This document shows positions 3,001 through 53,307 of a DNA stretch of 64,000 bases, piece by piece. This stretch comes from Cyanidioschyzon merolae. Lineage: Eukaryota. The stretch is taken from NCBI GenBank assembly GCA_000091205.1, contig AP006502.2. The stretch is one strand, 5' to 3'. The notes under the pieces are model-generated. The model was not told the origin of the DNA. It did no database searches and worked only from the letters and a program-made list of their open reading frames with translations. The position numbers and the translations under genes were made by a program. Position 1 is the stretch's first letter; each line of letters begins with the position of its first letter.

Positions 3001-3437
3001 TAAAGGTGCAGAGGCCAATCGTCGTTGTTCGCCAGGTGTTTTCGGACTCGCATGAGACGAACCTCTCTGCTATCGTCATATATTTATACGTATTCGAGGT
3101 CGCGTAATGAGGCACTGCGTAGCATGCTGAAAAGAACATCATGGACAGCGCGAAGAGGGACAGTTTCACAGCGGTTAAGGGCAGACGCTCATGGATATCG
3201 CTCAGAATCCAAGTCAATTTTTCTGGGTGGTATGCCATACTACCCAAACAAGATAGCGTTTCAGAGGAGGCGCCAGATCTATGGACTGTTTATGGTACTG
3301 TGCTGTACGCAAATCGACCCGGTCGCACTGCAAGTATCCTTGAAGCGCCAGCCGTGCTCTTGCTCCTTGTTCAGGACGTTCGCAGCGCTCCAGACGCCTC
3401 TCCGGATGCCGATGGACACTGCAGTTTCGGGCGCACG

Positions 3438-5480: not shown

Positions 5481-8400
5481 TTTCTTCAACAAAGCGTGTT
5501 TATCGTTGCGAACAATAACGTCGACGAAAACGTACCGAGGGTGGAACGACGAGAAGCACCGGTGCACAGCGGAGGCCGTTGCAATCAATGATTCCGTCGT
5601 CGCCTTCTTCCCGTGCAGTACAGGCTCGCAGGGAAGCAGGTTCAGCCGGCCGTTTCAGCGTGTTCGGAGACAGTCTCTACGTAGAAATTGTGTATTGTAA
5701 GGAGTGCTACTCCAGGACGACGTTTGCAGAGGTTTCGATCGCTGGCGGAGCTCCAAGCCTAGCACGGGAAAGGCCTGTAGATGTTTCAGATAAACCTCCG
5801 AGGCAGCGTGGCTGCCGCCTAGAGCCTCGGATCGGAACGGGGAGGCTTTCGGGGGAACGGTTTGAAAGTGTTTGCGATGTTACACAGCTGATTTTCATAA
5901 GGCGGAAGTTGGATGCGGAGTCAGCACCTGACTCCGCAGCCAACTTCGGGAAGAGCAGGTGCCCGGACTCGGAACCTCGCAGGAGCCGCCTACCGCGCAT
6001 GGATTTGGCACGGCACGCTGTGAGCATCGTCGCAGCAGTGAACGGAGCTGGCAAACTAAGGTGCTTGATGAAGATGTTGGGCGCGCTGCCTTTACTCCAG
6101 TGACGAATTCGTCTGCAAGCCCTGGCGAGCACCCCGCGGTACCTCGACAGCGTCAGAGGCCGTTGACTACGCCAAGCAGTATGCGCTGGTGACTCCATCC
6201 AGAAAATGTCGACCGCTGGCGAAACAGCGAAACATGCATGCTGTTCATGTAGTGTGAGCAACCTTTCCAAAGACCCATAGCCAATATTCGACTGCGATAG
6301 CGCTCGCGATCTCCGCTGGGATTTAGACACCTCAAGGCTTTAGGTGTTGGATATGCCTACCTGCTTGCCTGCATGATCCAAGGTGGAAACACGTTACTGT
6401 GGGTGCTTGGCAAAGCGTCGCGCAGGACTGCTCTCTATATCTTTGTACATTGCATCAATGCGTATAGCCATCCGCACAAGGAACGACGGCGTTGCCGCGT
6501 TCCAGACGCAAGCCCTATGCCTTCTACTTCATTATCAGGAGTGCTCCCGCAAGTTTGTGGCGATAGTACAAGTATGCTGGTTGCATGCACGTGCACATGG
6601 AAGGTGCTCTGTCCATTCAGCTTGGGGACGCTCCCATGCATAAAACAAAGCGTAGAGAGGCAACATGGTTGTGCGTGATCGAGGGGTACAGAGCGGTCCT
6701 GGAGAATGCAAGCGAAATGAACTTTCTCACTCCTTGTTTGGATTCGTAACACTCGGTTTCCCTGCAAGTAGTGAATTCTCGGCCTAGCGCTATCGGATTT
6801 CAGCGCCACAATGACCATCTTTGGTGCATGTCCTGAATATACACCTGATGCAAGGATCGTAGCACCCTATGTTTGCGCAGTAGCTGACCATGCCTGAGCG
6901 CAACGAACGATACGTCGTCTTGAAGAGGGCCTTGTGGCGCAATACGCAAATAGACGATGTTTACTTCTAATTGAGCGTGCCTGACCCCTGATATCGGCAA
7001 TCATTATGCACGGGTCAGGCACTGATCGAGGAGCGCTCGCGAGAGACAGATACAGGCAGGGCAACAGGATTTCATGACCATTGCTGCAAGCCAATTCACT
7101 CTATCGGAAACAGTGAATCAGAGTGAGTACGAATGTTCCGGCACACAGAACGCGTTTTCAAGCATGCTTCCGGCTGGTGGAGCTCGGCTTGGATTGGCTG
7201 TTGCCGAAATAATGCTTAATATTGCGTTTCAGATTAAAACGGAATACTGAACGTCTCGCTCTCTTCCTGCCATTCGAATTGTCCGAAGATTTTCACGTAC
7301 GGGCCCGAGGTTGGAGATGCAGCTATCAGGGTTTCCGGATTCATGCGTAGTTTAAGGTTATGGGTCGAGTTTCCGAAGTTGCTGCTTCTACGTTCTGCCG
7401 CCGGAATTCCTTTTGTCACTGTCATCAAGGTGATTGGCGACTCCCTCGACCAAGCTTTCATACAATAACCGATATCGTTATCCAATGCATACGTAATAGC
7501 CTCCATTCTTCTCTTTTCCTTACAAGTAGCATGGTCAGGTAAAGCATTCTCTAAGTTTTCGATCTTTCTCTTTCAAGGCAACGCGTGAGTGCACTTATTT
7601 GCACCGCTTGGTTGACAACTGAAATACTCAACTACATTAGTTGAGGACTGTTCATAAGCTCATGCGGAAAGGTTGCTGAATTTGTCACGTCAAACAATCG
7701 ATTCCATTCGAAATAGAACGCTTCCCTTATTCGTGTTCGTTGACGAATCAGGATACGATAGCAGCATCATGCCTCTAAGAATATACGCTCCGAGAGACAT
7801 CGATCTTTTCTCTTCGCATGCACTGAGGTCTTGGAGCCAGACCCTAATCCTCGCAGCGATCGCTCGTGCTAAAGAGCGCATTATCGTTTTGATGAACGAG
7901 AGCAGAAACGGATCGACTTTCCTCCAGCCTGGATTTTCCTTCCGATTTTCTTTTCATCATAATCAACATCGTGTTCCACAAACGATCTACCGAATAGCAG
8001 CACGTGCGCTTGCACGTTAAACAGACATACTAGTCGCCGAGTGGATCACCCAGAACAAGCCTGTGTCCGTAAGATACGTCACTAGGTGCGAAATCGGAGG
8101 AAGGTTCGCCCAGGCGAGCCCTGTCTACACGTCATGGGCACTACCGAGCAATGAGGCAAGCCGTAACGCACCACGGGGTTGAACTCGTTGAACGATGTGT
8201 GGTGGAGATATGGAAACGCCTAGCCACAGTCAAGTGTGAATCCTGCGAAGGTCGCATTCATGTTGCGTATCCAGAGGGCGAGCATTGCGAACGAAGCGCA
8301 GATCACAACTACCATCCGTGCACGAATTTCTTTGACAACGCCTGGAATCAGCAAATTCAGGACTTGAACACTGCAATCAGCACCCTTCGACTGCTGACAA

Positions 8401-14984: not shown

Positions 14985-15874
14985 CACGTATGTACCGGAA
15001 AAGCCGCCGCGTCACGTGCGACACGCGCGCTCCTCCGGATTTGATTCCGGTCTACAGAGCGTCTCCATTTTCAGATGACAAAACGTTTACATTGACCATG
15101 GATCCCAGAATAGCGAATGGATAGTGACTTTCGGGAAAGCGTCCATCATGCTACACTGTACCTTGTATTGCTGATATTTCCTCTTGGCTGTACTAGTCGT
15201 TTCGTACGTTGTATCTGGCACCGACTACCTGGCGTTGTGTGCTAGCAATAACGCGTATAGCTCTTGTGCGAATGTTATCCTGAGACGGAACAGCTTTGCT
15301 GTACCAGAGAGGGCATCGACTCGAGGTGCGTGTCACCGCGCACGGAATTGGGACTCATCATCATTCTGGGAGCCTGGAAGCTGCGCGTACAGACGTAATG
15401 CCTGCGACTGCACAGAGCGGTATTCTAGGAGACCGCGGCGACCAGAGCGACACCCAGACGCAGCATCCTGCTCCTAGTCCCAGAACGAATTGCGTTGCGG
15501 ACGAGCTGCGCAGGTCTCGCCACAGCACCTGCCACTGGAGGAAGCATGAAGCATGAGTCCGGCAGACTCGTTCGGATCGCGGGACCTTCCGCCTAGAAGG
15601 TAAAGTTTCGAAGATATGGAAACCTTCCCCCGTTCCAACGTTTACCTTTGAGTTGGAATGTAGTTTACATCGAGTTGCTATTTAATGGTTCGTTCCTGCC
15701 CTTTCTTACCTGGGAAAATGCTCGCTGCTCACGGGCGGGCACGACTGGGTATCTGGGCAATGCGTTCCGCGCATGGTATCCAGATCCATGGGCTCGCCCG
15801 TGCGGTAGTGATACGAATGCGTTTGTAGCCTCTGTTGACTTTCGCTCATTCGCGTATGCTATCGTTCGCGAACG

Positions 15875-29821: not shown

Positions 29822-31247
29822 CGGATTACCTAGGATCGAGTTATCGACGCTAGATAGCTCCATGAAAATCAACTCTCACATATGGTGTTTGCCCAGTGAA
29901 CCCACTCCCGATGCGGTAGATATTCGATATTCACGTCTCGCTGGGTTGCTGAAGCATACCATACCGCTTCCTTGCGTCACGCGAGAATAAATGCCCGCTC
30001 TCCCGGCCTCTGATAGTTTTCATTGCAAGTCGCCAGCGTTTCGGACCAGCGCCTTCAGTGAGTGCTAAACGATTCCATTAAAAATTTGCTTGGAACCCGG
30101 AGCCTCTCGACGTTTCACCAGCACGAGTCATCTCCCTATATTGATCCAGGGGTTCAGGTCTGAGCTAAGAAAGGGTCTGCGCGCATGGCTGCTCGTGAAG
30201 TTGCATCGTAGCGAGCCGCTCATCGTAGATCGCGTCTCCATCTGACGTTCGCGCAGCTTCTCCGTACAACATATCGTGCGTCTGTCTCTGTTTCAAAGTT
30301 ATCGTCGCCGCCTATTTCAGTGTGCACTCGTGGTCATGAAGCTTGTACGCTATCCTATAGTAATCGATGGGCACTGTATACAATCGATTCCAGCATTCGT
30401 TGAACGCTGTCGATCAGGGTGCAGGATTCCAGCCTATACGATCCAGAGCTCGCCCAGCGCCATAGGTTATCACCACACGAAGCGACCTGTAGGTCATGAC
30501 CTTTGCCTCCGAATCGAACAAGTTGACGAATGAACGCTTCTTGCCTCCATACGACGGAACTCACTGGTGACCGAGGCGGAGTCTCACGCAATCCTGCCGC
30601 AATTCGTCCGCATGAACCACTGTTCGTGCTTATGTACGCTCTTAGAAGGAGGCCTGCAAAGCGTCCTTCGATGTTCGAATCGGTGCTCAGCGCGCCGCGA
30701 CGGGGCTCGCCGTCGACATTCCACTTGTTGGCGGGCGCCCTGGAGTCCTCCAAGCTCAGCTCCCCATAATGCCGATCCCTGGAAAATTTGAGCCCATTCA
30801 TCTGCCTCCCGTTCGGGTTTTCCGCACCTGACCCCAAAGTATAGGGGAACAGCTACGGCTATGTTGATCGTAGACTAGGGATGCGCACGCACCGCGACAT
30901 AGTTCTCTTCACCTAGCTTAAACAGTTGGTAACGAGTCTCTGTCTGTTCGACGATAGCCTGGTTTTCACGAAATGCACACTGGTGGATTTACCGTCGGTC
31001 TCGATTGTCTCTGAATATATCATCCGATTTCCTCATTGCAAACAAGAAACGTTGATCGCGCTCCGCCAATGCTCTTGGCATTGTCGTTCGAATGCTTCAC
31101 ATCTGGACGCAGAGATCGGCCAAAGTTTTCCTGAAACGGCCATGCAGCGCAACCCGCCAGTGTCTATGGTGATGGAATGAGTCGTGATATGAAGTATTGG
31201 GACTACATCGGATCGACGCCAGATGAGGTCAGGACACGCGCACATGG

Positions 31248-32643
31248 GAAGCGAGTCTGCACTGCTCGACAGAGGGCGCTCTTCCTCGACATGTCATCGC
31301 GCGAGATGCATCGCGCTTCGCCATCATGTACTAGTCATCATCCGGATATGACTTGCGTCCATTCGAGCCCGAAAGCATCGCCATCAGCTTGGGTGTACAG
31401 TGCCAACGCTCGCTTTCGTTCCGGCATCTCTATCAACGTCGCGACGACCGTGAGCGTTTCCGTCGCCGCTCGCAAGTCGTTCGCCTCCGTCGACGCCCAC
31501 GGGATCTGTGTCACCAGTCGCCACTCTGGGAGGCGAGTATGATGATTCCACACAAGCGTCCATGAAGCGCTTCATACAGCGCTCGGCATGGATCCGCGGA
31601 TTGTTTTCCTTTTCGAGGCCTGCTCTGATACTTTCTGGTACCTGCGCTGTACGTGTTCTTATCGCCAATGCGCCGCTGCGACGCGTCGAGATGTTCTGGG
31701 AAGCTTGTGTCCAAAAAACGTGATTTTGCGGTACCAAGACCGCATTGCGTCCTCTGTCCCGAATACCGGTTGTGCTGACGCTTGAAAGTCAGCTCGAAAG
31801 CTTTCAAAAGAAAAACCGACAGCTGGGCGCCCTGCCTCCTGAACTCCTACGAACAAGCGCCTTCTGGGGTACGTCACAGCGAGGGAGCGTACGCAAGGCG
31901 TTGTCGAGAAACACGCTACGCGATCCCCAGTGGTGCCCTGTGTCTCCGTTTTCGGAAGTCTCTCCCGCATGATGCCCGCTAGTAGAGAGGATTTGGCAAT
32001 GGTTTCAGACTGCGGTGCCTGCTTCGACGTCTTTTCCTCGCTGTCGCGCCGCGTCTGCTCCGTGGAAGGAGCCCGCTCTCCTCTGACAGACGCTTTTTCT
32101 CATTTTCACTTCTACTTGGCGGCGCGGCATGCGTGTCATTGCTATACATCACAGCCGTTTTGATCATCGTTACTCAGAAGCATCCCTCGGACAGTGAGTC
32201 CGAGACGTGCCTGTTCTATCTGTGCCTGTATCCATCTGCAACGCCTCATGCACACGCTCGTCACCACCTGCTGCTGCAAGCACGCCCGTGGTCCCAGGCG
32301 CGCCTTTCCGCTGCACCCTCTCGCCCGCTCGCACGAACCGAGAAGCAATATAGTAGCCCAGGGATGCCGAAGGTAGAGCGAGGCGTGCCGAAGAACGGTT
32401 TGTTCGTGGACGGCGCCAGGGATACGCACGACTCGTCTACCGATCCCGGAGCGTAGCATGGGCGCAGGACAACACAGAAGCCATCTCCAACTGGACCGAA
32501 CACAGGAAAACACGCTGACCCAAAGAGCAGCCTGATGAAAATCCCAGCTGGGGACTCCCTGATCGCTCCTGCGTCATGGCAGGTGACCTTCTCCAAGTGC
32601 AGGACAGGAGCATGCTGGATGGAAGAGCCAGAAAGCGCTGCGG
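31248..32643 (+). repeat. right copy of the ~1.4 kb direct repeat; partner of 19687..21083
   Basis: Same evidence as the left copy. Amino-acid substitutions and one small indel in the shared ORFs imply roughly 97% nucleotide identity. The right copy ends ~300 bp upstream of the ATG of the AK-NADK gene. Confidence 0.85.
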
Positions 32644-35574: not shown

Positions 35575-38004
35575 GCAGTGCCGATTCTGAGACCTGGAAT
35601 GCGCAGACGGGACTCATTCACGCGAGCCCAGCTGAGGTCTGTGTGCTTGCCTCGCACACTATCCACGCAAATGTCCAGAAGAGTGGCATTCAGACGAGTT
35701 GTGGAGTCCGCGCTTCACCTTGCACCCAGTTCATGGAGGCATCAGGCAGTGTAGATGGGGCGCAGATACCGCCAAGGCTCGGCGCGCCCGGGCGCTAAAC
35801 ACTCTACAGACCCCGTATGTCCAGCGTTCAGCAGAGCAATTGCGACCTCGGCGGTGAGTTCGACTCCGCCTAGGTACCAGAAGCGCGTCGAGTCAGCGGC
35901 TAGAGGTCGCGTTGAACGTGCTTCCGTGGTCGTCGTCGTCGTCGACATCTACTGTTGCTGCTGGTGGACCCGGCGCTTTGTTGCGACGACGCATTGCCGG
36001 CCGGTATCGTCGGAGCTTGCGGTGCAGATGCCGCTCCGCAGAGGCCGCGTCTGCAGGCCAGCGTCTGTCGATAAGCGCAGGTGCAGTCGCGTCCAGGCAC
36101 TGGAGTCGTGCTGCCAGTCGCGTCGTAGTCGCACGGGGTCTGTTTCGTGGGGAGTGTTCGTGGCCGTTGCGCGGCTGCGGATGCAACCACAGGGTCCAGT
36201 TTGGTAACGCGCACCGCATCCGCACAATGCAACTGTCCAAACAGACACCACAGATACGTATCTCTCGCGTGGGAGCACTGCGACGCGCGTCTGCAGCCGC
36301 AGGCAGGCTATCGACTATGCAAGTCGTGCGGTTACGAGCGCGTAGGTCAAGCACATCGCCTCGGTCGCATGTTCTGGATGGGGGGCTCGTTACTGCCACT
36401 GGAGCAGTCCGGATCAGCGCGTATCTCCATTCACTTGACTTTCCATGTTTAGAGTTGCGTCGGGTTACTGGTTTCAGGCAAGAGATGCCGACTTTCATAA
36501 ACACGAACACATATCACATGACCATTCTCGAGCGCAACAATCCGCTCACAACCTCTTGAGCGCGGAAAGAGCGTGCCACAGCATTCCCAAAAGAAGCTCT
36601 CAAACCGGAACCAACCTGTCCAGTAGAGTAACGAGATTAGACTCCAGGTGTACGGAAAGAGAAGCAAGGTAAAGATCAGGAACGCGTAGTCGTAGCGAGC
36701 TGGATGGATGTCGTTGAAGACCTTCACGACGCGGGGAACTGCGCCGCTCCACGCTGCCGGTGCCGGGGCTGTCGTAATCGTTGCCGTAGAGGCCCCGACC
36801 GACGCATCGACTGCGTCCGTGGTCGGCGTGCCGTCGGCTGCAGGGCCCACAGGCACTTGCGTCAGGCGATGCTCGCGAACCGTTTGCCAGTAACCGTAGC
36901 GATGCCGCTTCTGCCAGTCCGCAACGTACGGCGGCAGAAGCGCACCCTCGGCACCCGCGAGCGTCGAGCGCTGACTCGCAGCGTCGGGTCCCAGGCACGG
37001 ACCCGCTGGCCAAGCTGATGCACCCTCCCCGGGACCCAGTTCTTCACCGCAAACGAAGCAGCGCGAGTAGTACTGCGACAGCGGTAGAAACACGAACGAT
37101 TCTGGCTCCAAAGAGTCCGCGTCCGCGGCCGGCGTCAGAGGCGAGGCCACCAGACGCGGCTGGTGCAGCGCCGCGGCACTGTTCCCCGCGAATCCTCAGC
37201 CGTCTAGTGGCTCAAGCGGCTGGGCTCCAGCCGAAAGACGCTGGACGCCCCGTCCAGACCTGCTGGTTTGACGCTGACCTCCTGTGCGTTGCGTCGACGC
37301 ACCCCCTCCGACGAACACATGCACGCGCTCGTTTGCATCAGAAGCTTTGGACGTTGCCCGATCACCTGGTCCAGCTACTTTCCCCTGATCACCGTTTATC
37401 ATGTGCGTTCGTCTCGGTTGGTGGCAAGTTCTAGTCTCTCTGCCGGTTCACAGCGGTCTCTGGCGTTCCAGACTCGCCCAGGATACCGCCTATGAATGCA
37501 GCGCGGACGTCCGGCAGCGCTCCCGGCGGTGGTATCCGTTGACGCAGCGTCGAGGGATGATGAGGCGGCGACGATCGACGCCACAAACCCGCAGAGGATC
37601 GCATGCTCCGTTGGCCTCGGGAGTCCTAGTAGCGGCATATTGCTCGAGCTGGAAGCTTCATATCGCAAACATTGCTATAGGCGCCACTGCTGTCGCTTTC
37701 GGCAGGCTCGGCACACGACAGGACGTAGGAAACGACCAGAATATCCGAGACGAATTATAGGTAATGGAACATGGAAGTAGGGGGTTGATGGATACTTTAC
37801 AGTGCACTGAAAAAAAAGCATAAAGAAAGAAGGAAGAAACGCGCATAATCGGAGAACGCTGGCGTAAGTAAACGCTCTGTCAATGAAAAAAATCGCAAAC
37901 ATAGCATGGTATGGTCTTTCAACTGGATTTTGGTTCATAACAGCTGAGTGGAATCGAATGCTTGTTAACAGTGCATTGCTGGAAGTCCTAATCACGGTGC
38001 AGTG

Positions 38005-39440
38005 TATACTCTGGATCCTAGTCGAATTGTTTGTAAAATGGATTCTTTATTGAATAGTGCACGGAGGACGGCATTCTACATTCAGGTCAGTCTTACGTCT
38101 ACCCTCAGATGGTTGACGAGCACTAAAAGAGAAAAGTACATGCGCTCCGCGTCAAAAACCGACAGTCTCAAAGAGTTCTTGCGTTCAATGATAGAAAATG
38201 ATTCGTTGATCATCGAACTGAAAGCAATAAGCGGCGAGTACAGCCACCGCCGGTATCTATCTTTCTAAACAGCTTGCTCCTTTAGCCCTGAATACACTGG
38301 GATACAGTGGGAAAAAGGTCCTAGTTCACGCACGGCCATCTTGCACGGAAATCCCAACGATTACAACGTTCCTGGAACTCAGCGACCGGTTTGAAACACA
38401 AGGACATCGGTTTGTTTTTTAAGACGGCGAGGCCTCATTCGGATGAAACGGTCGGAGCTTATATGCGTACTCGCCGAGCATGCATCCCGTTTTATATACA
38501 ATCGAACTCGAGGGGAATGAGGACATCATCTTCCGTTCAAGCCGCAGTGGACTCATTTGGCGGCTACAGTTTCGCTTATAGAGAAAGCGTATTCAACAGC
38601 ACCAACCACCTTGTCGAATCATGGAAGACTTGTTCGCTGACGCCTGGCGACGCTCTCCTAGTGATCAACTTGGTAGTTCACAATCCCCGCTGCGTCCCCG
38701 CTTTCGTGGATACTATTGAGGTAGAGCTGCTTTTCATTCCAGCGTACTCTTCGAGCTTAAATCGTATCGAAAGGAGTGTTTTCGCTCGTGACACGTAATG
38801 ATCACCTCAGAAGGCGAATCGCTGAAGCGCTTAGCACACATTGATACCGGGAGACATGTCGCCTTTCCCCTGCAAGTCCTTCTCCATCCGGAAGGTTCTC
38901 GCCTTAATGCATAAAGAAGTGAGTTCATTTGAATGAAAAATTCATGGGAACGGTATAGCCATGCAAGTCAAGGATCACGGGAGGCCGCTGTCGCCGGGTA
39001 CCTCGAAAAACGGAAAAATCCTAGGCTCGCCGACTATCGATCGAAAAAGGGTATCTGACGACGACGACAACGACGACAACGACGACAACGACAACGACCA
39101 AGAAGAAGAATAGAGGCGATAGACGAGAATAGACGTTCGCCCGACGTGACAATGCCGAGACTGAAACGACACAGAGGGCACGAGTTCCACCTATGCTCCC
39201 AGTGGTGCATTCCACCGGCGGCAATAAACACATAGAGCTCGTGGACCGGGACTTCAACGCTGCCATCAATATCAGACGACTTGTGGCGCTGAAGACGAGA
39301 CCCGCGGAGCTGACACGATCTAACTTTGCGGGGCAGCCTCTCAGGCTCGAAATGTGCTTGGATATACTGAAACTGATTGCAGGCGGCGAGGCGAAAAGGC
39401 TGGACGTCGTCTGCGACTAGGTTAACAAACTTACCCTCTA
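38005..39440 (+). mobile_element. composite non-autonomous element (copy X-D): Tc1/mariner-like terminus plus DDE-transposase remnant, joined to the 3' fragment of a TnpB/Fanzor-like gene
   Basis: The 5' end CAGTGTATACTCTGG is the inverted complement of the conserved 3' terminus of the TnpB-like copies. Frameshifted ORFs 38002..38268 and 38391..38798 retain ...LLFIPAYSSSLNRIERSV. This resembles the FLPPYSPDLNPIE third-acid-residue block of Tc1/mariner/IS630 DDE transposases. ORF 39193..39420 encodes ...HIELVDRDFNAAINIRR..., a TnpB RuvC-III motif. The whole arrangement is duplicated at 50476..51860. Confidence 0.6.
39057..39110. repeat. (GAC)n/(GACGACAAC)n microsatellite followed by (GAA)3, inserted inside the X-D element
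   Basis: The run gacgacgacaacgacgacaacgacgacaacgacaacgac is read from the sequence. It is absent from the paralogous copy Y-E. Confidence 0.8.
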
Positions 39441-39518
39441 TAGTTGTGAAATGTTTATCATTTTGCAGATTATAGTTAGGCGTATGTTCGCTGAACGCCA
39501 TTCTACAGACAAACGACG

Positions 39519-40480
39519 CCAGCAGTGTACAGTAGTGGCGAGAAGCCCGCCCTAGACGAAACGTCTCCAACTGACGTGCAGACGCCTCCCCGTCATTTTG
39601 GACCGGCCACCCAATACTGCCTCCAACTTTTTCTCATGTAGTTCGAGTTTGAGAAGTTGTCCAACAAAGTTCTCTCGTGTGAGTTCCGGAGGTCTCATCT
39701 CCAGCACCGCACATCTACTTATATTGATAGCGGCGTTAAAGTCTCGGTTCACGAACTCCACCCGTTTCTTGCCACTGATCGGACTAATTAATGCGAGTAG
39801 TCCACGAACGTTCGCCCTCCTTTCCATTTGCTCCTCCGTCAGCGGTCCGTACTTTGCTATTTCCTCAGGGCTCCTCTGGCGCTTCTCCATCTCGACCCTT
39901 TGAAGTGTGCACCCCAGTTCATGGTGTGTATACGATGTTCGGAACTCATCTATCGGGGTTGTAACGAACCGCCATGCGCACTCCTTGTACGTTCTTGTCG
40001 TTGGAGCTGGCATAGTCCCTTTTTGGGTCTTCCATCGCCCTGCTCCGCACGCTACTATCAGCCTCTGACTTTGATTCTCTTTGAGGGCACTCAACTGATT
40101 GAAAAAGTCCGCGAACGCCCGCTCCCTCTACCCGTATGGATTCATACGCAGACGAGCCAACCGAGGCTTCGTATACTCCTCCCAGAGCGCATCCCAATGC
40201 GCAACGCGAACATCCATGAATTTTCGAAAAGCTTCAAAGTCCGCTCCTCGGCTCGTGACCTCGCTCAAAGCTGCCAGGTGATCCTTCATTCCTGAATTCC
40301 AATTCTCGATTTTCTTCCTCGCATTCATTATACCGGATTCTCGATCGTATTTGGCTCTCGAGAACCTCAAAAGACGCATGTCTTTCCGACGCAAATTACC
40401 GTCAGTGCCATCTTCCGAACGCTCCGGGCCTGCACCTTAGAGATATTCGGCGCCAGTTTGCCTCAGCTGGGCATGCTCTG
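39519..40480 (-). mobile_element. TnpB/Fanzor-like element copy A, 5'-truncated; conserved 3' terminal region ending ...CGCCACTACTGTACACTGCTG
   Basis: ORFs 40128..40394 and 39552..40094 sit in the same frame, separated by a single TAG. Together they encode ...RESGIMNARKKIENW..YKECAWRFVTTPIDEFRTSYTHHELGC...VEFVNRDFNAAINI. This matches the C-terminal half of TnpB (the (V)xVxP..TSxxC zinc-finger region, then RuvC-III D-x-NAA-x-NI). Homology to copy B stops near 40470, just before the 3' end of the SET gene. Confidence 0.65.
39552..40394 (-). pseudogene. TnpB/Fanzor-like RuvC nuclease pseudogene (copy A): in-frame TAG and missing N-terminus
   Basis: I translated the junction by hand: ...RLRMNPYG, then TAG, then RERAFADFFNQLSALKENQSQRLIVACGAGRW... 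continue in one frame. The stop falls in the segment that aligns to TnpB RuvC-II (IVIEDLNVAGMLRNRRLARAI). Confidence 0.6.
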
Positions 40481-40498
40481 CTGCGTTTTGTGACGGAT

Positions 40499-41917
40499 TC
40501 ACCGCTCCGCCGATACACCACTGTTCGTCGCATGCCCAGAGTGCTGAGGATGGGCATGCCCGAGCTGCTGCAGCGCACGCTCCAGAATACGCTTCTTTCC
40601 TATGCGAAAGCGCCGCGCCAGCTCCAATCGCTGGTTGCTCGGCTGCCATTGCTCATCCTCAGTGAGCGTCGTCGGCTTGCGCGCGAGCTCTTCGCGAATC
40701 AGTGCTATCAGACCAGTCGCCGAGAGGTGTTGGACCGACTCTGGATTGCGCACGCGGCCTGTCGCATCGAAAACGATCGTCGTCTCTGAGGCATCGTCCC
40801 AGAGCTTGTACGTGTCGTGCGGGTTATCCTCTTCCACGAATCCGTACAAAGCCAAAAGTTCATCGTTGGTCAAAGTGCCGTACGATATGAAGACCTGATC
40901 GCCTGCATGCGTGTCTCGATTGCTTATGCTGAGCGAAAAAGCATCATAAAAGTACTCATAAGCGACCTTCGATTGGACGCGAGAAGAATGATTGAAGAGA
41001 TCAATGAAAGGTGCAATGACATACTTCTTCAACGGTGCACCCTGCATGGACTGATAAATGCGCGGGTACAGCGCGTCAAATACGAGCTGCGACAAGACCA
41101 CCACCAGAAAGACGTTCAGTGCTGCGAACGCGTCCATGAGATGAAAGTTCCAGCTCGCTAGGGAAAGTGCCCCAGCGAAACACGCCTGACGCCAGCGTTC
41201 ACCGAATGGCGTCGTCTCGGAGGGTCCGCTGAATGCGCGCGTGACAACGACGTTCAACGCCCACTGAAAGTCCTGTTCGCTGAATAAACCTCCTCGCACT
41301 TTCAAATCGATTCCGCCTCGTTCGAATGTCTGCCGCACGAACCGACCATAGAGATCCTTCCATTTTCGTTCCTGCTCGCTGATAGCCCGCAAAAGACAAT
41401 CATACTGGAGCTCCCGACGTTCTGCATCTGTCCAGTACAGAGGCCGCTCGTCAAATGTTGTCGGCAAGAGACGGAACCAGGGCGAAAGTGTGCAGTTAGA
41501 CGCCGATACTTTGGCAGGGCCTCGACGCTGGTTTGGCCGGATCTCCCAGCGCTTTAATTTGCGACGCAAGACAAGAGTCTCTAGCTTTCGAGCAGACTCA
41601 GGATCTGCTTTGTACCGCTCGAAAAGCAACAGAAGCGCGAGACGAGCGTACCAAGGCGCCTGCTTCCAGAACATGGGCGCGCAGACCTCTTCTGGCAGAG
41701 GACAACCTCGTCCGCTATCATCGGAGCGGGTCTGCAACGCCAGAAACCCCGGCACTCGAGCGAGAATCGAACCTGCAGGCAAGGCGGTTTCAGCTCTGAG
41801 GCCGCGTAGGTGCTCGCGGCCAAAGTGCGCAATGCTGAGTTCAGCGGTTTCAATGCCGGCGCCTTTTGCCCACTCCATAAAGCCGACCTCTATGCTATGA
41901 TCATTCAGCGTTGTCAT
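40499..41917 (-). CDS. SET-domain protein-lysine N-methyltransferase, SETD3/SETD6/Rubisco-LSMT-like
   Basis: The ORF is open up to 42634, but the SET-family N-terminus (MTTLNDHSIEVGFMEWAKGAGIE...GRGL-type start) begins at the ATG near 41917. The C-terminal part holds IAPFIDLFNHSSRVQSKVAYEY and VFISYGTLTNDELLALYGF, which are the SETD3/6 and LSMT hallmarks. The upstream 240 codons of open frame are most likely non-coding 5' region. Confidence 0.8.
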   Translation of the reverse strand: MTTLNDHSIEVGFMEWAKGAGIETAELSIAHFGREHLRGLRAETALPAGSILARVPGFLALQTRSDDSGRGCPLPEEVCAPMFWKQAPWYARLALLLLFERYKADPESARKLETLVLRRKLKRWEIRPNQRRGPAKVSASNCTLSPWFRLLPTTFDERPLYWTDAERRELQYDCLLRAISEQERKWKDLYGRFVRQTFERGGIDLKVRGGLFSEQDFQWALNVVVTRAFSGPSETTPFGERWRQACFAGALSLASWNFHLMDAFAALNVFLVVVLSQLVFDALYPRIYQSMQGAPLKKYVIAPFIDLFNHSSRVQSKVAYEYFYDAFSLSISNRDTHAGDQVFISYGTLTNDELLALYGFVEEDNPHDTYKLWDDASETTIVFDATGRVRNPESVQHLSATGLIALIREELARKPTTLTEDEQWQPSNQRLELARRFRIGKKRILERALQQLGHAHPQHSGHATNSGVSAER

Positions 41918-42609
41918 ATCTAGCTGTGGCGAATGCCTCGTGGCTTCCCTGGTCCATGTATTCTGCTGGGGTTCCTCGCCCGCTGTACTCCTTTGGTGCT
42001 CGCGCGTGTTGCAGTGTTCGCCGCTTTTTTCTTCGCCCAGCTCTCCCTCTCGAGATAGCGTCGCACGCACGCTGGACCGGAAACGAGTCATCAACCGATT
42101 ACACGGAGAGAGGGCCGGTCCGCTGCACACGGACAACGCCACCGGGCACCGTTGCTGCCACACGGTCGACGGCAGCAGCCACGCAACGGTCATCTGGTCT
42201 GGTTCAGCTCTACCAGAAAACAAAAGCATAGTCCCAGTGAGTGACAACTGATCCGACGCAGCCTCACTCGAAGACGCAATCACACGCGCACCTCGCAAAA
42301 AGCAGAACCGTTCAGTGGACGACAATTTCGGAACGTCGCAGGTCACTGCGAAGCTATGATGCGCTGTGCCGCTGCGCTCCAGAGTTGCAAACACTCGCCC
42401 GTTCTTTCGGGGCGCAGCGTAGCCCGGTGCTCCAGTGTGCTTCCAGAGGTCCTTCTTGTACGTCTGAAACGTTTCTACGAAACCACTGAACAGCTTTCTA
42501 TCGTCCAACACGAAACTCAGGAGCTTCAGTCCTTGAGCGAACGAGCATGAGCTTCGTGCTCGCGAGCAGTTCGAGATAGGACGTTTTGGATCAAACGAGG
42601 ATCCGTCGC

Positions 42610-43829
42610 TGAGTTCGCGCACCCCTGGAAGCAAACGCCTTTCGAAAGTCGAACAACAGCGGTGTACAGTAGTGGCGGCAAACGCGCCCTAGACAAGAAG
42701 TCTCCAACCGAGATGCAGACGCCTCCCAGGTTTTTTTCGACCGGCCACCCACTACTGCTTCCAATCTTGTCTCATATAGCTCGACTTTGAGAGGTTGTCC
42801 AACAAAGTCCTCTCTTGTCCACTCTGGAGGTCTCGTCTCCAGCACCGCATATTTCCTTATATTGATTGCGGCGTTATAGTCACGATTCACAAACTCCATA
42901 CGTTTCGTGCCATTGATTGTAATTAATAATGCGAGTAGCCCTCGCACTTTCTTCCTTCTTTGCATTTGCTCTTCCGTCAGCGGTCCGTATTTTGCTATAT
43001 CCTCAGGGCTCCTCTGGCACTTTTCCATCTCCACTCTCTGAAGTGTACAACCCAGCTCATAGTGTATATACGATGTTCGGAACTCATCTACAGGTATGGT
43101 AACAAAACGCCTTGCGCACTCTTTGTATGTTCTTGTCGTTGGAGCTGGCGTAGCTCCTTTTTGGGTCTTCCAGCGCACCGCCCCATACGCTACTACGAGC
43201 CTTTGATTTCATTCTCCTTCAGGGCACTCAACCCATTGAAAAAGTTGGCAAACGCCCGCTACCTCCCACCGTATAGATTCATACGCAAACGAGCCCACCG
43301 GGGCTTGGTATACTCCTCCCATAGCGCCTCCCAGTGAGCAACACGAACTTCTATGAATTTCCGAAAAGCTTTAAAGTCCGCTCCTCGGCTCGTCACCTCG
43401 CTCAAAGCTTCCAGGTGCTCTTTCATTCCTGAGTTCCAAGTCTCGATTTTCTTCCTCGCATTCATAATACCGGATTCTCGATAGTATCTTGCTCTCGAGA
43501 GCCTCAAAAGACGCATGTCTTTCTGACGTAAGTTACCATCAGTCCCATCTTCCGCACACTTTGGTACAGCGATGGTTATGATGTTCGTATTCCCAGGGTC
43601 CGCGCCAACGACAAAGTCGTTATCCTGCACCTCCTGCATCGCAAGATCCGCACCCTTCTCATCTACATCCTTCGCCGAGCCGTCTACAAGGTTGTACTTT
43701 TCCACTTCCTGCGTCGCAGGATCCGCATCCTTATCATCTACATCCTTCGCCGAGCCGTCTACAAGGTCGTCATCCTCCACTTCCTTCGTCGCAGGATCCG
43801 CATCCTTCTCATCTATATTCTTCGCCACG
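42610..43829 (-). mobile_element. TnpB/Fanzor-like element copy B, the most complete copy, frameshifted; it forms the left arm of a head-to-head palindrome with copy C
   Basis: ORF 43259..43828 encodes acidic 25-aa repeats, then FVVGADPGNTNIITIAVPK (a RuvC-I GxDxG motif) and RLLRLSRARYYRESGIMNARKKIETWNSG. ORF 42591..43178 encodes ...RWKTQKG..YKECARRFVTIPVDEFRTSYIHYELGC...MEFVNRDYNAAINI. A 1-nt deletion relative to copy A sits between them, giving tcgtagtag. The conserved 3' tail cgccactactgtacaccgctg lies at ~42656. Confidence 0.65.
43610..43829. repeat. 75-bp tandem repeat, ~2.7 copies, encoding the acidic 25-aa repeats at the N-terminus of TnpB-like copy B
   Basis: The unit atccttcgccgagccgtctacaaggtNgtNNtNNtccacttcctNcgtcgcaggatccgcatccttNtcatctac is read directly from the sequence. 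The protein repeat is VDGSAKDVDDKDADPATQEVEKYNL. Confidence 0.75.
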
Positions 43830-44880
43830 GGCGAAGCCGAGGACGGACCAGGAGGCGAGCCCGACGGCGCTGGAGGCGCAGAAGAACGCGTTTGCCGTTG
43901 GCGTGGACTCTGCGAACACGAACATCGTTACCATTGCAGCACCCAAGCGTGAGGAAGATGGCTCTGTCGGCAACTTATGTCAGAAAGACATAAGACTGTT
44001 GAAGCTCTCATGAGCGAGATATTACCGAGAATCCGGTATAATGAATGCGACGAAGAAAAGTGAGACATCGAATTCAGGGGTTAAGTGAATTTGGAAGCGA
44101 TCAGCCGGGTGACGAGCCGCGGAGCCGATATTTAAGCGTTTCCAGAGGCTATGAGCACTCACGCATCTGAAGTCGAGAGCCTTTGGAAAGAATGCACAAA
44201 GTTCAGGTGGGCTCGTCTGCGTATGAACCTGTACTGTAGGAAGCAGCGAGCATACGCCAGCTTTTTCATTCAATTGAGCGCCCTCAAGGAGGACAGGAGC
44301 CAAAGGCTCGTAGTAGCATACGGGGCAGGTCGATGGATCACCCAAAAAGGGTGTACACCAGCCTCCAACGACAAGAACGTACAAGGAGTGCGCACACCGT
44401 TATGTCAAAACACCTTTAGATGAGTTTCGAACATCTTCTACACACCACGAGCTGTGTTGTACACTTCAGAGGGTCGCGATGGAGAAAAGCCAGCGGCTCG
44501 CTGACGGAAATGCAAATGGCAAGGAGGGCGAAACTTCGAGGACTACTCGCTTTGGTTAATAAAACTAATGATAGGAAGAAACGAATAGAGTTCCTGGACT
44601 GAGACTTTAACGCCGCCATCAGTATAAGGAAATGTGCAGTACTGGAAAGAAGACCCCCGGAGTTGGCGAGAGCCAACTTTGCGAGGCAACCTCCCAAAAT
44701 GGAGTGATACGAGAAGAAGTTGAAACCAGTAGTAGGTGGCCAGTTGCGGAACGCCGGCACAGGCGTCTGCACATCATTGGGTAGACAATCGGTCTACGAC
44801 GGACGGTGTGAGAAACGCCACTCCTGTACACTGGCTTTCCAGCGTTTCTCTTTTGCAAGGCGTTTGGTGGTGTTTCCAGA
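43830..44880 (+). mobile_element. TnpB/Fanzor-like element copy C, heavily degenerate, inverted relative to copy B and abutting it head-to-head
   Basis: Conceptual plus-strand translation from 43831 gives AKPRTDQEASPTALEAQKNAFAVGVDSANTNIVTIAAPKREEDGSVGNLCQKDIRLLKLS*ARYYRESGIMNATKK..., which parallels copy B. ORF 44151..44423 contains LSALKEDRSQRLVVAYGAGRWITQKG. Downstream lies DFNAAISIRKCAVLERRPPELARANF. The 3' tail ...aaacgccactcctgtacactgg lies at ~44815-44838. Confidence 0.6.
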
Positions 44881-50118: not shown

Positions 50119-50475
50119 GAGGGCAGCGTGCAAGCAGAATTAGAGTTGCATATTGTTCGGTACCCGTGCACTGCAGTGCAGAGTATACGGACCACGAAGC
50201 ATGAATATGGCAAAGAAGGTTCGTTTTTATGTATGGAGCGGTGCGTATGCGCATCCGCTCACACACGTTCACAAGCCCCAAGTCGGCTAGCTAAGGATTC
50301 CTGCACTGCACTGCACTGCCGTTCTTGGTCGTTCGAATTCGCAATCCAGAAACGCATCCCATGCGGACGCTCGAGACGCTCTCTGCTCACCAGCGCAACT
50401 CCATGAGGCTCCATTCCTGCTATGCGTATTCGTATGCTATGTTGATGTGTATAGCAGAAGGTCGAGATGTAGAAG

Positions 50476-51860
50476 CAATGTGCTGTATAGATCGTAGACG
50501 AATAGAATGTTAGATATATATTCTTTACTGAACAGTGCAAGGAGGACTGCATTCCTCGTTCAGGTACGGTTCACCACAGTATTCAGATGGACGAGGAAAA
50601 CTGAAATAAAGAAGCAAGTACATGCGATCCACACCGAAACCAGATATACTCATAGCGTGCTTGCGTTCACTGGTAGAAAAACGACCCGTTGATTACTTTA
50701 GGGAAGGGGAAAGCGACGATAATACCCATTACCTCTATCTATTTTTCTCGCCAGCTAATTCGTGTGATCCTGAATGCACTGGCATACAGTCGCGATAAAG
50801 TCCTGGTTCATGCACAGCCGTCTTGTATCGAATTCGCAACGACAGCGTTCCCGGAACGTCCCGATCGGTACGAAGCACAGAGACGTAGCTCTGTCTTTTT
50901 CAGACGATGCGACTTTCTTTGGCCGAAATGGTCGGGGCGTACATGGGTAGTCGCGGAGATGGAGCCAGCTGTATGTATGATCGAACTTGATGAGAGCGAG
51001 GACATCATCAACTGTTTCAGCTGCAGTGGATTCATTTGGCGGCCGCAGTTTCGCTCAGAGAGAAGGCTCGTCGAACAGCACACACTGTACCGAATCATTG
51101 AAGAAATTTCCCCTGACGTCTGACGACGTCGTCCGGTTGTACGGCTTGGTATTTCACCATTCCCCTTGCGTTCGAATGTTTGCTGATTCGATCGGGGAAT
51201 AGAGCTGCTTTTCATTCCTCGATATAATCCGTGGTTGAGCCCCATAGAAAGTGTTTTTTCTATTATGAGACGTTTTTAATGCTCAACGGGGCGAGTCGCT
51301 GCAGCGTTCAGCACACATTGGTACCTGGCCACATTGTGTCCTTCGTCTGCAAGCCCTTCTCGCTCCGGTTAGCTCCTCATCTAACGGCATAAAGAAGCGC
51401 GCCATTTGAAGAAATAAGAAATCCAAGGGATGAGCTGCGGTGTACACTTCAGAACATCGAGATAGAGAGAAGGCAGCGGAGCGCATCGCGCGATAGAAAA
51501 GTACGGAGAGCTGACAGAGCAGTCAATGGTACTGAGTACTCGTGTTCTGGCAATCCTTGCATGGGTGAGTTCAACAAGCGGCATTATATGCGAGGAGTTC
51601 GTGAAACGAGACTCCAACGTCACCTTCAGTATCCGACGATATATAGTGCTGAAGAAGAGAACCGAGGAGCTGACGCGATACAGGTTTATGGGGCAGTCTC
51701 TCAGACTTGAGGTGTGCAGGAGGAAGCTGACGTCAATAGGTGGTGGTCGGTCGAAAAAGGCTTCACCTCTGCGAAAATTGCTTCGCCCATAACTTGCGTT
51801 GGAAAAGCAAAATCGCACACATGAAGACTTTGTGATTTGAACATGCTGTTGTTCGGGAAA
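50476..51860 (+). mobile_element. composite element copy Y-E, paralogous to 38005..39440: Tc1/mariner-like transposase remnant joined to a TnpB-like 3' fragment
   Basis: ORFs 50507..50692, 50689..51123 and 50987..51202 parallel copy X (LLNSARRTAF..., ...AAVDSFGG.SFA.RE...). In copy Y the transposase C-terminus has decayed to ...ADSIGE-LLFIPRYNPWLSPIES. ORF 51526..51792 encodes EEFVKRDSNVTFSIRRYIVLKKRTEELTRYRFMGQSLRLEV, a decayed RuvC-III region. Nucleotide homology with X-D can be followed across the junction, as in gaRtcgctgMagcgYtYagcacacattgRtacc. Confidence 0.55.
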
Positions 51861-53307
51861 CAACAAGATGAAAGGCTTGTGCATATGCATCGGATAAGGA
51901 TTCGGGTTATTTTAGGTACCCTTGTTCCAGCGTGTCGCGAATGATCTTGATTCAGAGGTCGTGACGAATTCCAGCGACAAGGCGTCATTGAAATCACTCT
52001 GAAAAGACGACAGAGCATTTGAAAACTGCATATGAGTCCGAAAGTCCTTACTGCTTCTCCTCAAACGCCGAAGTTGACCATTTAAAAAAGTTGGGAAGAG
52101 AAAAATGAAGAGCAGCAACAGAGCGACTAGTTCAGAGTTGCATGTGAATCTCGCAGTGGTTTAGTGCAGGTTACCCACTTGGAAAAAGAAGCAGCTTCGT
52201 GCGACCGACTGTATGCATCTACTTCGACGCACGCTGAGCGCGGAGAGCTAGGTCGACATGTCCATAGGTATCTTTTACAGCTTTCGATCCTGCACAGCTT
52301 CTTCCATTGCAGGTCTGCGGGTACTCGGAGTCAGCTACATGATTAGGTTCGAACGCAAATTACCCTCGATTGGAAAGAACTTCCATGATATCCTTGTGTA
52401 GAACGGCCTCTATACAGCAACGCAAAATCTAATGCAAGCTATCCATTTTTAGAAACGTAAAACTCATGATGAAATGAGGCAGCAGGCTGGCGCTCGTCAG
52501 CAGCCGAAGCAACATCGAATTCGAGATCCGCAGGCGGCTAGCCTCGGCGAGAACACCCGTTTTCTCAGACGCTGAAATGCGAACCGCTGTACAGCGGTTT
52601 TTCGGATGCGACCCGTTGTGCTGCGGCTGCGGCTGCGGCTGCTGTTGGCCGTAACCCTTCTGGTGACGCGCAGTACCGAACGCATGTCTTTGAGAACGAT
52701 TCTGACGCTGCTGGTTTTGCTTTCCGTATCGGGCACTATAACGCTCCTCGTTTTCGGAGGTCTATTCAAAGCAAAGTATCCTTACTTGGGTGACTTTGAA
52801 GGCGACTATGCAGCAACTGCATCCGTTTGTTTCCAAAGTGCGCTTGCTTTCTCTGCGCTTGGAGCAGCCAGTGCGCTTGGTTTGCCGCTTGTTCACTGGT
52901 GGTGGGAAAGACGCTTGGCGCGGAGACGGGCGCTGCGGTCATTGGAAGACCCCTCAAAAAGCGCACGTGTCCGCTTCGTTGCTACCTCTTCGTTTTGATA
53001 CTAATGCGCCCAAGAATCCCTCCCTGTCTACCAACGAGTACAGGGGGCGTGCTAGCTACGTGCGTCCATTCGTATCGCACTTCGTGTCGTGTGGCGAGCG
53101 CTGAACCACGCTCTCTCGCGAGGCCATGGACAAAAACGGTAGACTCCTTGTACAAAACTTCCTCGATCATTTACTGATCTTCGTTTCTAAACGGTTCGTA
53201 TCGAGAACCGCCGCCACGGGAGCACTCAGCTTCGCGAGAGCATCTCTTCGCTATCTCTTCCACGTGTGAGGGCAAAGTGCCTGTCAAAATCTCGGGACAC
53301 ATCTGCA

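Follow-up and report, generated by a model that had tools for sequence, protein, structure and literature searches.

How did a short segment of the Cyanidioschyzon merolae genome come to hold a crowd of broken reading frames carrying the motifs of a RuvC nuclease, and to what protein and what kind of mobile element did they once belong? The segment lies within a 64,000-nucleotide stretch of C. merolae 10D DNA (contig AP006502.2; hereafter the window), in a region at 37.9–44.9 kb with a second patch at 50.4–51.8 kb. An initial annotation of this DNA had described five related fragments, A to E, as disabled relics of TnpB/Fanzor-type nucleases riding on Tc1/mariner-like elements, possibly a minimal Fanzor lineage. 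We conclude with high confidence that the cluster consists of the dead, truncated remains of CMe-1, an old DNA-transposon family with a Fanzor1 cargo gene, copies D and E coming from a subfamily in which that gene was combined with a transposase gene.

The family is a published one. CMe-1A, the Fanzor1 family of C. merolae and the only Fanzor family listed for this organism in the 2013 survey of Bao and Jurka (Mob DNA 4:12; PMC3627910), was reported to have ~150 copies, each ~80% identical to the consensus, some of them intact. According to the supplementary files of that paper the consensus is 3169 bp long and its protein, CMe-1, has 734 amino acids. The first 635 bp, at the 5' end, are common to a separate repeat, TE-N2_CMe; the family was described without terminal inverted repeats (TIRs), with target-site duplications (TSDs) undetermined and the classification given as unknown. 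The window copies are 68–89% identical to the CMe-1A consensus as DNA and up to 84–87% identical to CMe-1 as protein, and individual DNA identities over 330–1040 nucleotides (88% for A, 89% for B, 76% for C and 68% for E) are at the family level, where ~80% is expected. Organism, TE-N2_CMe 5' module and divergence are all as published; what sets the window copies apart is that they are 3' fragments. Repeat finding gave direct repeats of 300 nucleotides between A and B (84–88% identity) and matches of 150–210 nucleotides, direct or inverted, among A, B, C and E (B/C, A/C and C/E; 73–82%), all far beyond chance expectation, and together with the mapping to CMe-1A it placed the five related fragments where they had been annotated. 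Family, host and Fanzor1 identity have been in print since 2013, which makes the finding genuine but unremarkable. In a later survey Fanzors are recorded from rhodophytes, and the Fanzor1c clade is tied to transposons of Mariner/Tc1 type (Jiang et al. 2023, PMC10530073).

Three of the copies map to the 3' part of the CMe-1A consensus. Copy A (39496–40434, minus strand) corresponds to CMe-1 residues 441–734; it is 5'-truncated and has no RuvC-I. In blastn, 39496–40423 aligned with consensus 2236–3169 at 88% identity, and tblastn aligned 294 codons in a single frame at 84% amino acid identity with one in-frame stop. Its 3' end is complete, with a weakened terminal hairpin. Copy B (42657–43853, minus strand) covers consensus 2093–3142 at 89% (blastn) and, in two tblastn frames, CMe-1 residues 406–722. 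It keeps all three RuvC residues, and its damage amounts to one stop in each half and one frameshift. Copy C (43850–44862, plus strand; consensus 2140–3169 at 76% in blastn; CMe-1 residues 402–732) is older, as its identity to the consensus indicates, and has at least ten stops and one frameshift, with a stop adjoining RuvC-III. Three-frame translation recovered the peptide motifs that had been quoted for these copies, in place and in order, interrupted by stops and frameshifts: GADPGNTN at 43583–43606 (minus strand), DEFRTS at 39933–39950 and 43071–43088 (both minus) and 44419–44436 (plus), and RDFNAAI at 39726–39746 (minus) and, in copy D, at 39247–39267 (plus). Translations and tblastn alike bear out the description of every copy as disabled. 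Judged from their reading frames, with stops, frameshifts or both throughout, none of copies A to E can make a nuclease.

The copies also show a peculiar arrangement. B and C lie head-to-head, their junction at 43850–43853 falling at nearly the same consensus position in both and inside a 75-nucleotide repeat; D and A lie tail-to-tail across a gap at 39420–39496. The B–C arrangement is found as well in a strain with 96%-identical flanks (loci L069 and L074), where unrelated sequence stands in place of the SET-domain gene and copy A and where the B copy is just 87% identical. When empty sites or allelic insertions were sought among 82 related loci, none was found besides this syntenic strain, which keeps B and C and differs to the left of B.

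Does the family belong to Fanzor1 on evidence other than its published name? For a consensus protein reconstructed by combining copies A and B, 284 close relatives were found, at no more than 90% identity and no more than 516 amino acids long, from a few Joint Genome Institute (JGI) metagenomes, and a metagenome scan gave 216 related places. A HMMER search with one close relative, P0033, returned 1006 cluster representatives, many of them 600–700 amino acids long at 35–44% identity, and the protein collection contains a 716-amino acid family member. Searching Protein Data Bank (PDB) sequences with a single sequence in phmmer gave no match, so a profile was needed. A profile built from 34 diverse relatives matched PpFz1 (9cf0, E = 7.5e-22), SpuFz1 (8gkh, E = 3.9e-12) and GtFz1 (9cer, E = 1e-7), and no PDB protein other than Fanzor1 chains was significant; a profile match of the kind on which the TnpB/Fanzor/Cas12 assignment hinged therefore exists. 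A precomputed DUF8286 tag was uninformative.

Structure comparison gave the same answer. We built an AlphaFold2 model of P0033 on the 34-relative alignment (mean predicted local distance difference test score, pLDDT, 80.3; predicted template modelling score, pTM, 0.71) and compared it with the PDB using Foldseek. The best seven matches were Fanzor1 chains (E = 2.2e-12 to 1.2e-8, probability 1.00). Behind them, with much weaker scores, came Cas12 variants and ISDra2 TnpB. Profile, tblastn and Foldseek thus agree with the initial identification of these fragments as TnpB/Fanzor-type RuvC nuclease relics in a eukaryote. SpuFz1 (Spizellomyces punctatus), PpFz1 (Parasitella parasitica) and GtFz1 (Guillardia theta) have the same WED-REC-RuvC order as CMe-1, the same relocated RuvC-II glutamate in a D-E-[FY]-x-T-S motif and the same RDxNAAxN RuvC-III motif, at a sequence identity of 12–16%. 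With ISDra2 TnpB (IS200/IS605, 8h1j) and Cas12f, CMe-1 has the RuvC fold in common and, by homology, presumably an RNA-guided mechanism. However, the fold match to these proteins is far weaker (E about 1e-2) and the canonical RuvC-II glutamate is absent from CMe-1, which further differs from bacterial TnpB in having no TnpA partner, in its eukaryotic host and in its size.

The catalytic site can be read from the same alignment. Columns invariant among the 34 relatives include the aspartate of DPG (RuvC-I), the glutamate of DEFRT and the N, A and N of RDxNAAxN (RuvC-III), and the aspartate of RDxNAAxN is kept in at least 90% of the sequences. In all Fanzors the canonical RuvC-II glutamate is replaced by glycine or proline, and a conserved glutamate lies ~45 residues downstream instead (Jiang et al. 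2023, PMC10530073). CMe-1 has AYGAG at the canonical site, on the strand RLVVAYGAGRW, and the substitute, E603 in DEFRTS, lies ~35 residues downstream. The initial annotation was right that the canonical glutamate is not conserved but had aligned RLRMNLYGG to this site; since the canonical site lies on RLVVAYGAGRW, RLRMNLYGG is not the RuvC-II position. The missing glutamate, which aligns to DEFRTS, is the normal relocated-glutamate arrangement of Fanzors and not a defect.

If the fragments are Fanzor1, why do they begin so close to RuvC-I? The initial annotation had raised a minimal Fanzor lineage, in which the short reading frames from RuvC-I to RuvC-III would be a native compact nuclease, and at 38–45 kb itself no N-terminal domain is visible and copy B has the acidic repeat alone upstream of GADPG. 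The consensus open reading frame (ORF), however, runs from nucleotide 906 to 3110 and encodes the published 734-amino acid protein, and all window copies that map to CMe-1A begin at nucleotide 2093 or later, A, B and C at 2093–2236 of 3169. The absence of WED and REC is therefore a truncation and not the mark of a compact protein. Relatives at 82–93% identity (P0033, L002 and L003) continue upstream of RuvC-I into a long conserved N-terminal region, and in the P0033 model predicted REC helices and WED strands precede RuvC-I. The suggestion of a Fanzor without WED and REC thus gave way to one of 5'-truncated pieces of a full-size Fanzor1, and a native compact nuclease is now vanishingly improbable.

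What lies directly before RuvC-I is a tandem repeat, the one feature of the N-terminal half that is out of the usual. Between a WED strand (IETDGVA.CVHY) and RuvC-I, family members carry a 25-amino acid (75-nucleotide) acidic unit resembling DADPATQEVEDNDLVV, in 1 to ~7 units (for example in P0001, P0004, P0008 and P0009). Residues 196–233 of the P0033 model, with pLDDT below 50, place the repeat in a predicted disordered segment. Copy B has three tandem units of 75 nucleotides at 43600–43826, and its 5' truncation falls within this linker. This variable repeat before RuvC-I, together with the absence of zinc-finger cysteines after DEFRTS, distinguishes the CMe-1 clade from the Fanzor1 proteins of solved structure.

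One or more of the copies might instead have been domesticated and still be expressed, for example as a nuclease-dead RNA-binding protein or as a regulator of the adjacent SET-domain gene. The long single-frame alignment of copy A, broken by one stop, and the position of copy B, whose 3' end abuts the SET-domain ORF at 40499–42634, speak for it. Yet every copy has a stop or a frameshift, residues 1–400 are absent, the 11–32% divergence from the consensus looks neutral, and the sequence to the left of B differs in the 96%-identical strain. We consider domestication very improbable.

What moved the family? Upstream of copy D lies F1 (37915–38930, plus strand), which the DDE_3 match and the alignment of copies identify as a decayed Tc1/mariner-type transposase relic with a 5' non-coding region; it contains a CAGTGTATACTCTGG motif at 38000–38014 and a YSSSLNRIE block at 38745–38771 (plus strand). 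A single F1 ORF, 38391–38798, matched the Pfam family DDE_3 at E = 3.8e-4. A consensus assembled from seven copies, two of them in the window and the other five in metagenome loci, gave a clean 265-amino acid ORF with DET, LLLDN..H and YSPWLNPIE motifs and a DDE_3 match at E = 4.2e-24 (85.5 bits against a cut-off of 28.6), along with weak HTH_33 and HTH_Tnp_Tc3_2 matches. Its best PDB match, a weak one at E = 0.013, was the Sleeping Beauty catalytic domain, and over the catalytic core it has 31% identity to the Mariner-type transposase of Pythium PUl-1.

The transposase and Fanzor1 genes are joined in a recurrent way. In L038/L039, L026, L027 and the window, which have unrelated flanks, the transposase stop is followed ~40 nucleotides on by the Fanzor1 start codon, and the alignment of these transposase-type (F-type) copies continues directly into that codon. 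The window counterpart of the Fanzor1 start is a decayed N-terminal stub of the ORF at 38961–39113 (plus strand), which begins ~30–40 nucleotides past F1 with MQVKDHGRPLSPG..., corresponding to CMe-1 MEKEVEDPGGPVSPA..., and passes into a simple GAC/GAT repeat. Copy D follows at 39157–39420 (plus strand) as a C-terminal Fanzor1 fragment with the motif DRDFNAAINI, 39157–39399 matching CMe-1 residues 640–721 (49% amino acid identity, E = 3.8e-18 in tblastn); a large internal deletion connects it to the stub, and it is without a CMe-1A-type 3' terminus. A second relic, F2 (50395–51400, plus strand), also part of the seven-copy alignment, is directly joined to copy E (51396–51762, plus strand), another C-terminal fragment, with the motif KRDSNVTFSI, that corresponds to CMe-1 residues 598–721 (E = 2.6e-20 in two frames in tblastn; 51430–51762 against consensus 2737–3071 at 68% in blastn). 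The composites F1-D (37960–39560) and F2-E (50440–51960) are 78% identical over their entire length. Since the internal deletion joins an N-terminal stub to D, D and E derive by deletion from a composite of transposase and Fanzor1 genes.

The same layout is known from PUl-1 of Pythium ultimum, in which a DDE transposase gene is followed by a Fanzor1 gene (Bao and Jurka 2013, PMC3627910). In PUl-1, 24-bp TIRs and TA duplications are plainly recognisable; in contrast, the ends in C. merolae are decayed, with one subterminal inverted repeat detectable. The paper that described CMe-1A makes no mention of a subfamily with a transposase upstream, and in the literature searched we found no other paper linking mariner elements to C. 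merolae. The association of transposase and Fanzor1 is thus a previously unreported addition to the CMe-1 family. It suggests that the family was once mobilised as the cargo of a Tc1/mariner-like element, and such a carrier is our preferred reading for the transposase-type copies.

The element ends bear on this reading in several ways. The TIR pair proposed initially has CAGTGTA and a few further bases in common, which is no better than shuffled sequence, and it was dropped. As judged by the loss of homology among six copies, the transposase-type 5' end starts at 37915 in the window, ~85 nucleotides upstream of the CAGTGTATACTCTGG motif taken for the TIR. There is a subterminal inverted match of 17 of 20 positions between 5' CCGCAGCGGTGTATACTAG and the reverse complement of the CMe-1A 3' region CCGCCAGCGGTGTACAGTAG; it lies ~25–30 nucleotides inside both ends, in the best-preserved copy only, and none of 300 shuffles reached its score. 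This one subterminal repeat makes TIRs plausible for the transposase-type element.

At the 3' end, 40 of 54 non-redundant copies, examined sequence by sequence, have a terminal hairpin of CMe-1A. It occurs in two stem variants, both of which pair: AACGTTTTTC-TTTT-GAAAGGCGTT, at -9.9 kcal/mol (6 of 300 shuffles as stable), and GGCGTCGTTCGA-CTT-TCGAACGGCGTT, at -16.2 kcal/mol (1 of 300 shuffles as stable). The 3' ends of the CMe-1A copies in the window lie at 39496–39525, 42630–42660 and 44835–44865, and L063, L067 and L076 provide other examples. The boundary is heterogeneous, some copies stopping before the hairpin and some right after it (GGCG|TT), and four copies continue past the hairpin with 16 further bases in common, TTTG(T/C)TTCCAGGGG. 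On the other side, ~30 TE-N2_CMe and CMe-1A copies have a T-rich 5' flank (…TTTTTC|CGATGAC…), for example at 15060–15073 in the window and at 6470–6478 in L026, with unrelated sequence farther out. This flank may be either a target preference resembling a target-adjacent motif (TAM) or an unrecognised, variable 5' terminus.

A number of observations weigh against a Fanzor1 family carried by a Tc1/mariner-like element. For the protein, Pfam searches of the window ORFs and of full-length relatives gave only sub-threshold Cas12f1-like_TNB matches (E between 0.16 and 0.21, and 0.0012), so that of the profile checks the Pfam models fell short where the 34-relative profile succeeded in matching Fanzor1. 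The CxxC...CxxC cysteines of the zinc finger, which most TnpB/Fanzor proteins have, are missing: CMe-1 reads DEFRTSYTHHELGCTLQRVEMEKCQ... there, and the consensus of the wider clade is without conserved cysteines. A C4 zinc finger between [TS][TS] and RD belongs to the motif of Bao and Jurka, who still classed CMe-1 as Fanzor1 (PMC3627910), and its absence looks like a clade-specific loss. An intact full-length ORF was found in 0 of the 82 related loci, the longest having 594 amino acids. As to the element, most family copies are of CMe-1A type, with the unrelated TE-N2_CMe as their 5' module and no Tc1/mariner transposase, so that of the Tc1/mariner link first proposed, the recurrent joining to a DDE_3 relic stands but neither the quoted TIR pair nor an extension to most copies does. 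Neither the other copies nor the alternative 3' region of transposase-type copies showed inverted similarity beyond that of shuffles, and a TA 1–3 nucleotides from the apparent end occurs only in the 5' flanks of some F-type copies, whose boundaries are decayed, no complete two-ended element being among those sampled. In the F-type copies sampled, the 3' region departs from CMe-1A past consensus ~3085 into a different 45-nucleotide tail. Finally, RNAalifold gave no consensus structure for the last 344 alignment columns of 54 copies.

The most substantial rival holds that the Fanzor fragments and the Tc1/mariner relics are neighbours by chance or by nested insertion in repeat-rich DNA, and that CMe-1 itself moved by Helitron2/Helentron-like rolling-circle transposition or by retroposition. 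The three window copies of CMe-1A type have each kept their 3' end and lost their 5' end, and this pattern, the 3' hairpin with TT(T)G directly after it, the heterogeneous 3' boundaries, the lack of TIRs and the T-rich 5' flanks of ~30 copies would fit either process. The prevalence of TE-N2_CMe at the 5' end without a transposase fits too, as does the report of neither TIRs nor TSDs by Bao and Jurka (PMC3627910), and Fanzor1 elements of Chlamydomonas are carried on Helitron2. Against chance or nesting speak the junction of transposase stop, ~40 nucleotides and Fanzor ATG, found again and again in four or more loci whose flanks are unrelated, and the one subterminal inverted repeat that links the transposase-type 5' end with the 3' end of CMe-1A and beats 300 of 300 shuffles. 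Beside no copy did we see a Rep/helicase or a reverse transcriptase, and the copies end in neither poly(A) nor CTRR. We regard this rival as possible but rather unlikely, and keep the Tc1/mariner carrier as the preferred reading for the transposase-type copies.

The 5' modules are more varied than two. The common core is preceded by at least four different sequences, two of them in addition to TE-N2_CMe and the transposase module, and the alternative 5' modules meet the core at consensus ~640 (loci L004, L035, L037, L003, L015, L016 and L018–L020). The family is therefore a set of chimeric subfamilies with a common Fanzor gene and 3' end. A more speculative proposal would make the Fanzor1 gene and its hairpin 3' terminus a persistent unit that swapped 5' partners; the intact 3' ends beside raggedly truncated 5' ends, the pairing of copies head-to-head and tail-to-tail and the three 3' boundaries would then reflect copying initiated at the right end, for example through abortive gap repair after Fanzor-guided breaks or a one-ended transfer of rolling-circle type, and not cut-and-paste. 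This we think distinctly improbable.

By analogy with other Fanzors, an intact CMe-1 would encode a nuclease of ~734 amino acids with WED, REC and a split RuvC, its putative catalytic residues being D431 (GADPG), the relocated E603 (DEFRTS) and D672 (NRDFNAAINI). Homology suggests that it would act as an RNA-guided double-strand DNA endonuclease. Transcription running from the 3' end of the ORF out across the element's right end would supply the guide RNA (omega or fRNA), and the ribonucleoprotein would cut DNA matching the sequence beside that end, an activity thought to aid the persistence of the transposon. Published Fanzor loci have the fRNA in the stretch from the end of the ORF to the right inverted repeat, and the guide reaches past that repeat. 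The conserved 3' untranslated region and terminal hairpin of CMe-1A, which match this position, are where a guide RNA would be expected. In the composite subfamily of D and E, a Tc1/mariner-type DDE_3 gene stands ~40 nucleotides upstream of the Fanzor1 start; the commoner CMe-1A has TE-N2_CMe as its 5' module.

Elsewhere in the window, a solo TE-N2_CMe lies at 15074–15707 (plus strand; 79% to CMe-1A consensus 2–639 in blastn), and a short TE-N2_CMe fragment at 37678–37781 (minus strand; 81% to consensus 84–189 in blastn) stands just upstream of F1. Outside the cluster, a divergent Fanzor1-like relic at 30315–31227 (minus strand) matched CMe-1 residues 305–618 in tblastn (E = 2.2e-22); it has 24–34% amino acid identity to CMe-1 and six stops, shows the motifs IETDGKS, YGGKKRSFVNLF, VITYGAGRA and PIDYYRI, and probably extends over ~29980–32100.

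The setting is otherwise that of ordinary eukaryotic genes, present as long ORFs without introns in DNA of ~55% G+C. Their products include a Myb protein, a DEAD-box helicase, an ADK-NAD kinase fusion, a class-3 lipase and a SET-domain protein. The helicase ORF (3438–5588, minus strand) is identical at 680 of 680 positions to XP_005539176.1 of C. merolae 10D, and its next named relatives, at 67–78% identity, are from Cyanidiococcus yangmingshanensis. That full match rules out a trypanosomatid, oomycete or fungal source, each of which had been considered on the grounds of base composition and the scarcity of introns in the ORFs. The SET-domain ORF between copies A and B (minus strand, 711 codons) has weak SET and Rubisco-LSMT substrate-binding matches. 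Its frame is open upstream as far as the 3' terminus of copy B, and its true start is probably an internal methionine.

With the family known since 2013, the biochemistry of Fanzors since 2023 and the window copies dead, the cluster has little discovery value in itself, and the lead of a minimal nuclease is closed. What it adds concerns the family as a whole. The DDE_3 transposase upstream of the Fanzor1 ORF in one subfamily offers a classification for a family that had been left unclassified, and the conserved 3' hairpin, by analogy with other Fanzor loci, marks a likely site at which to seek its guide RNA.

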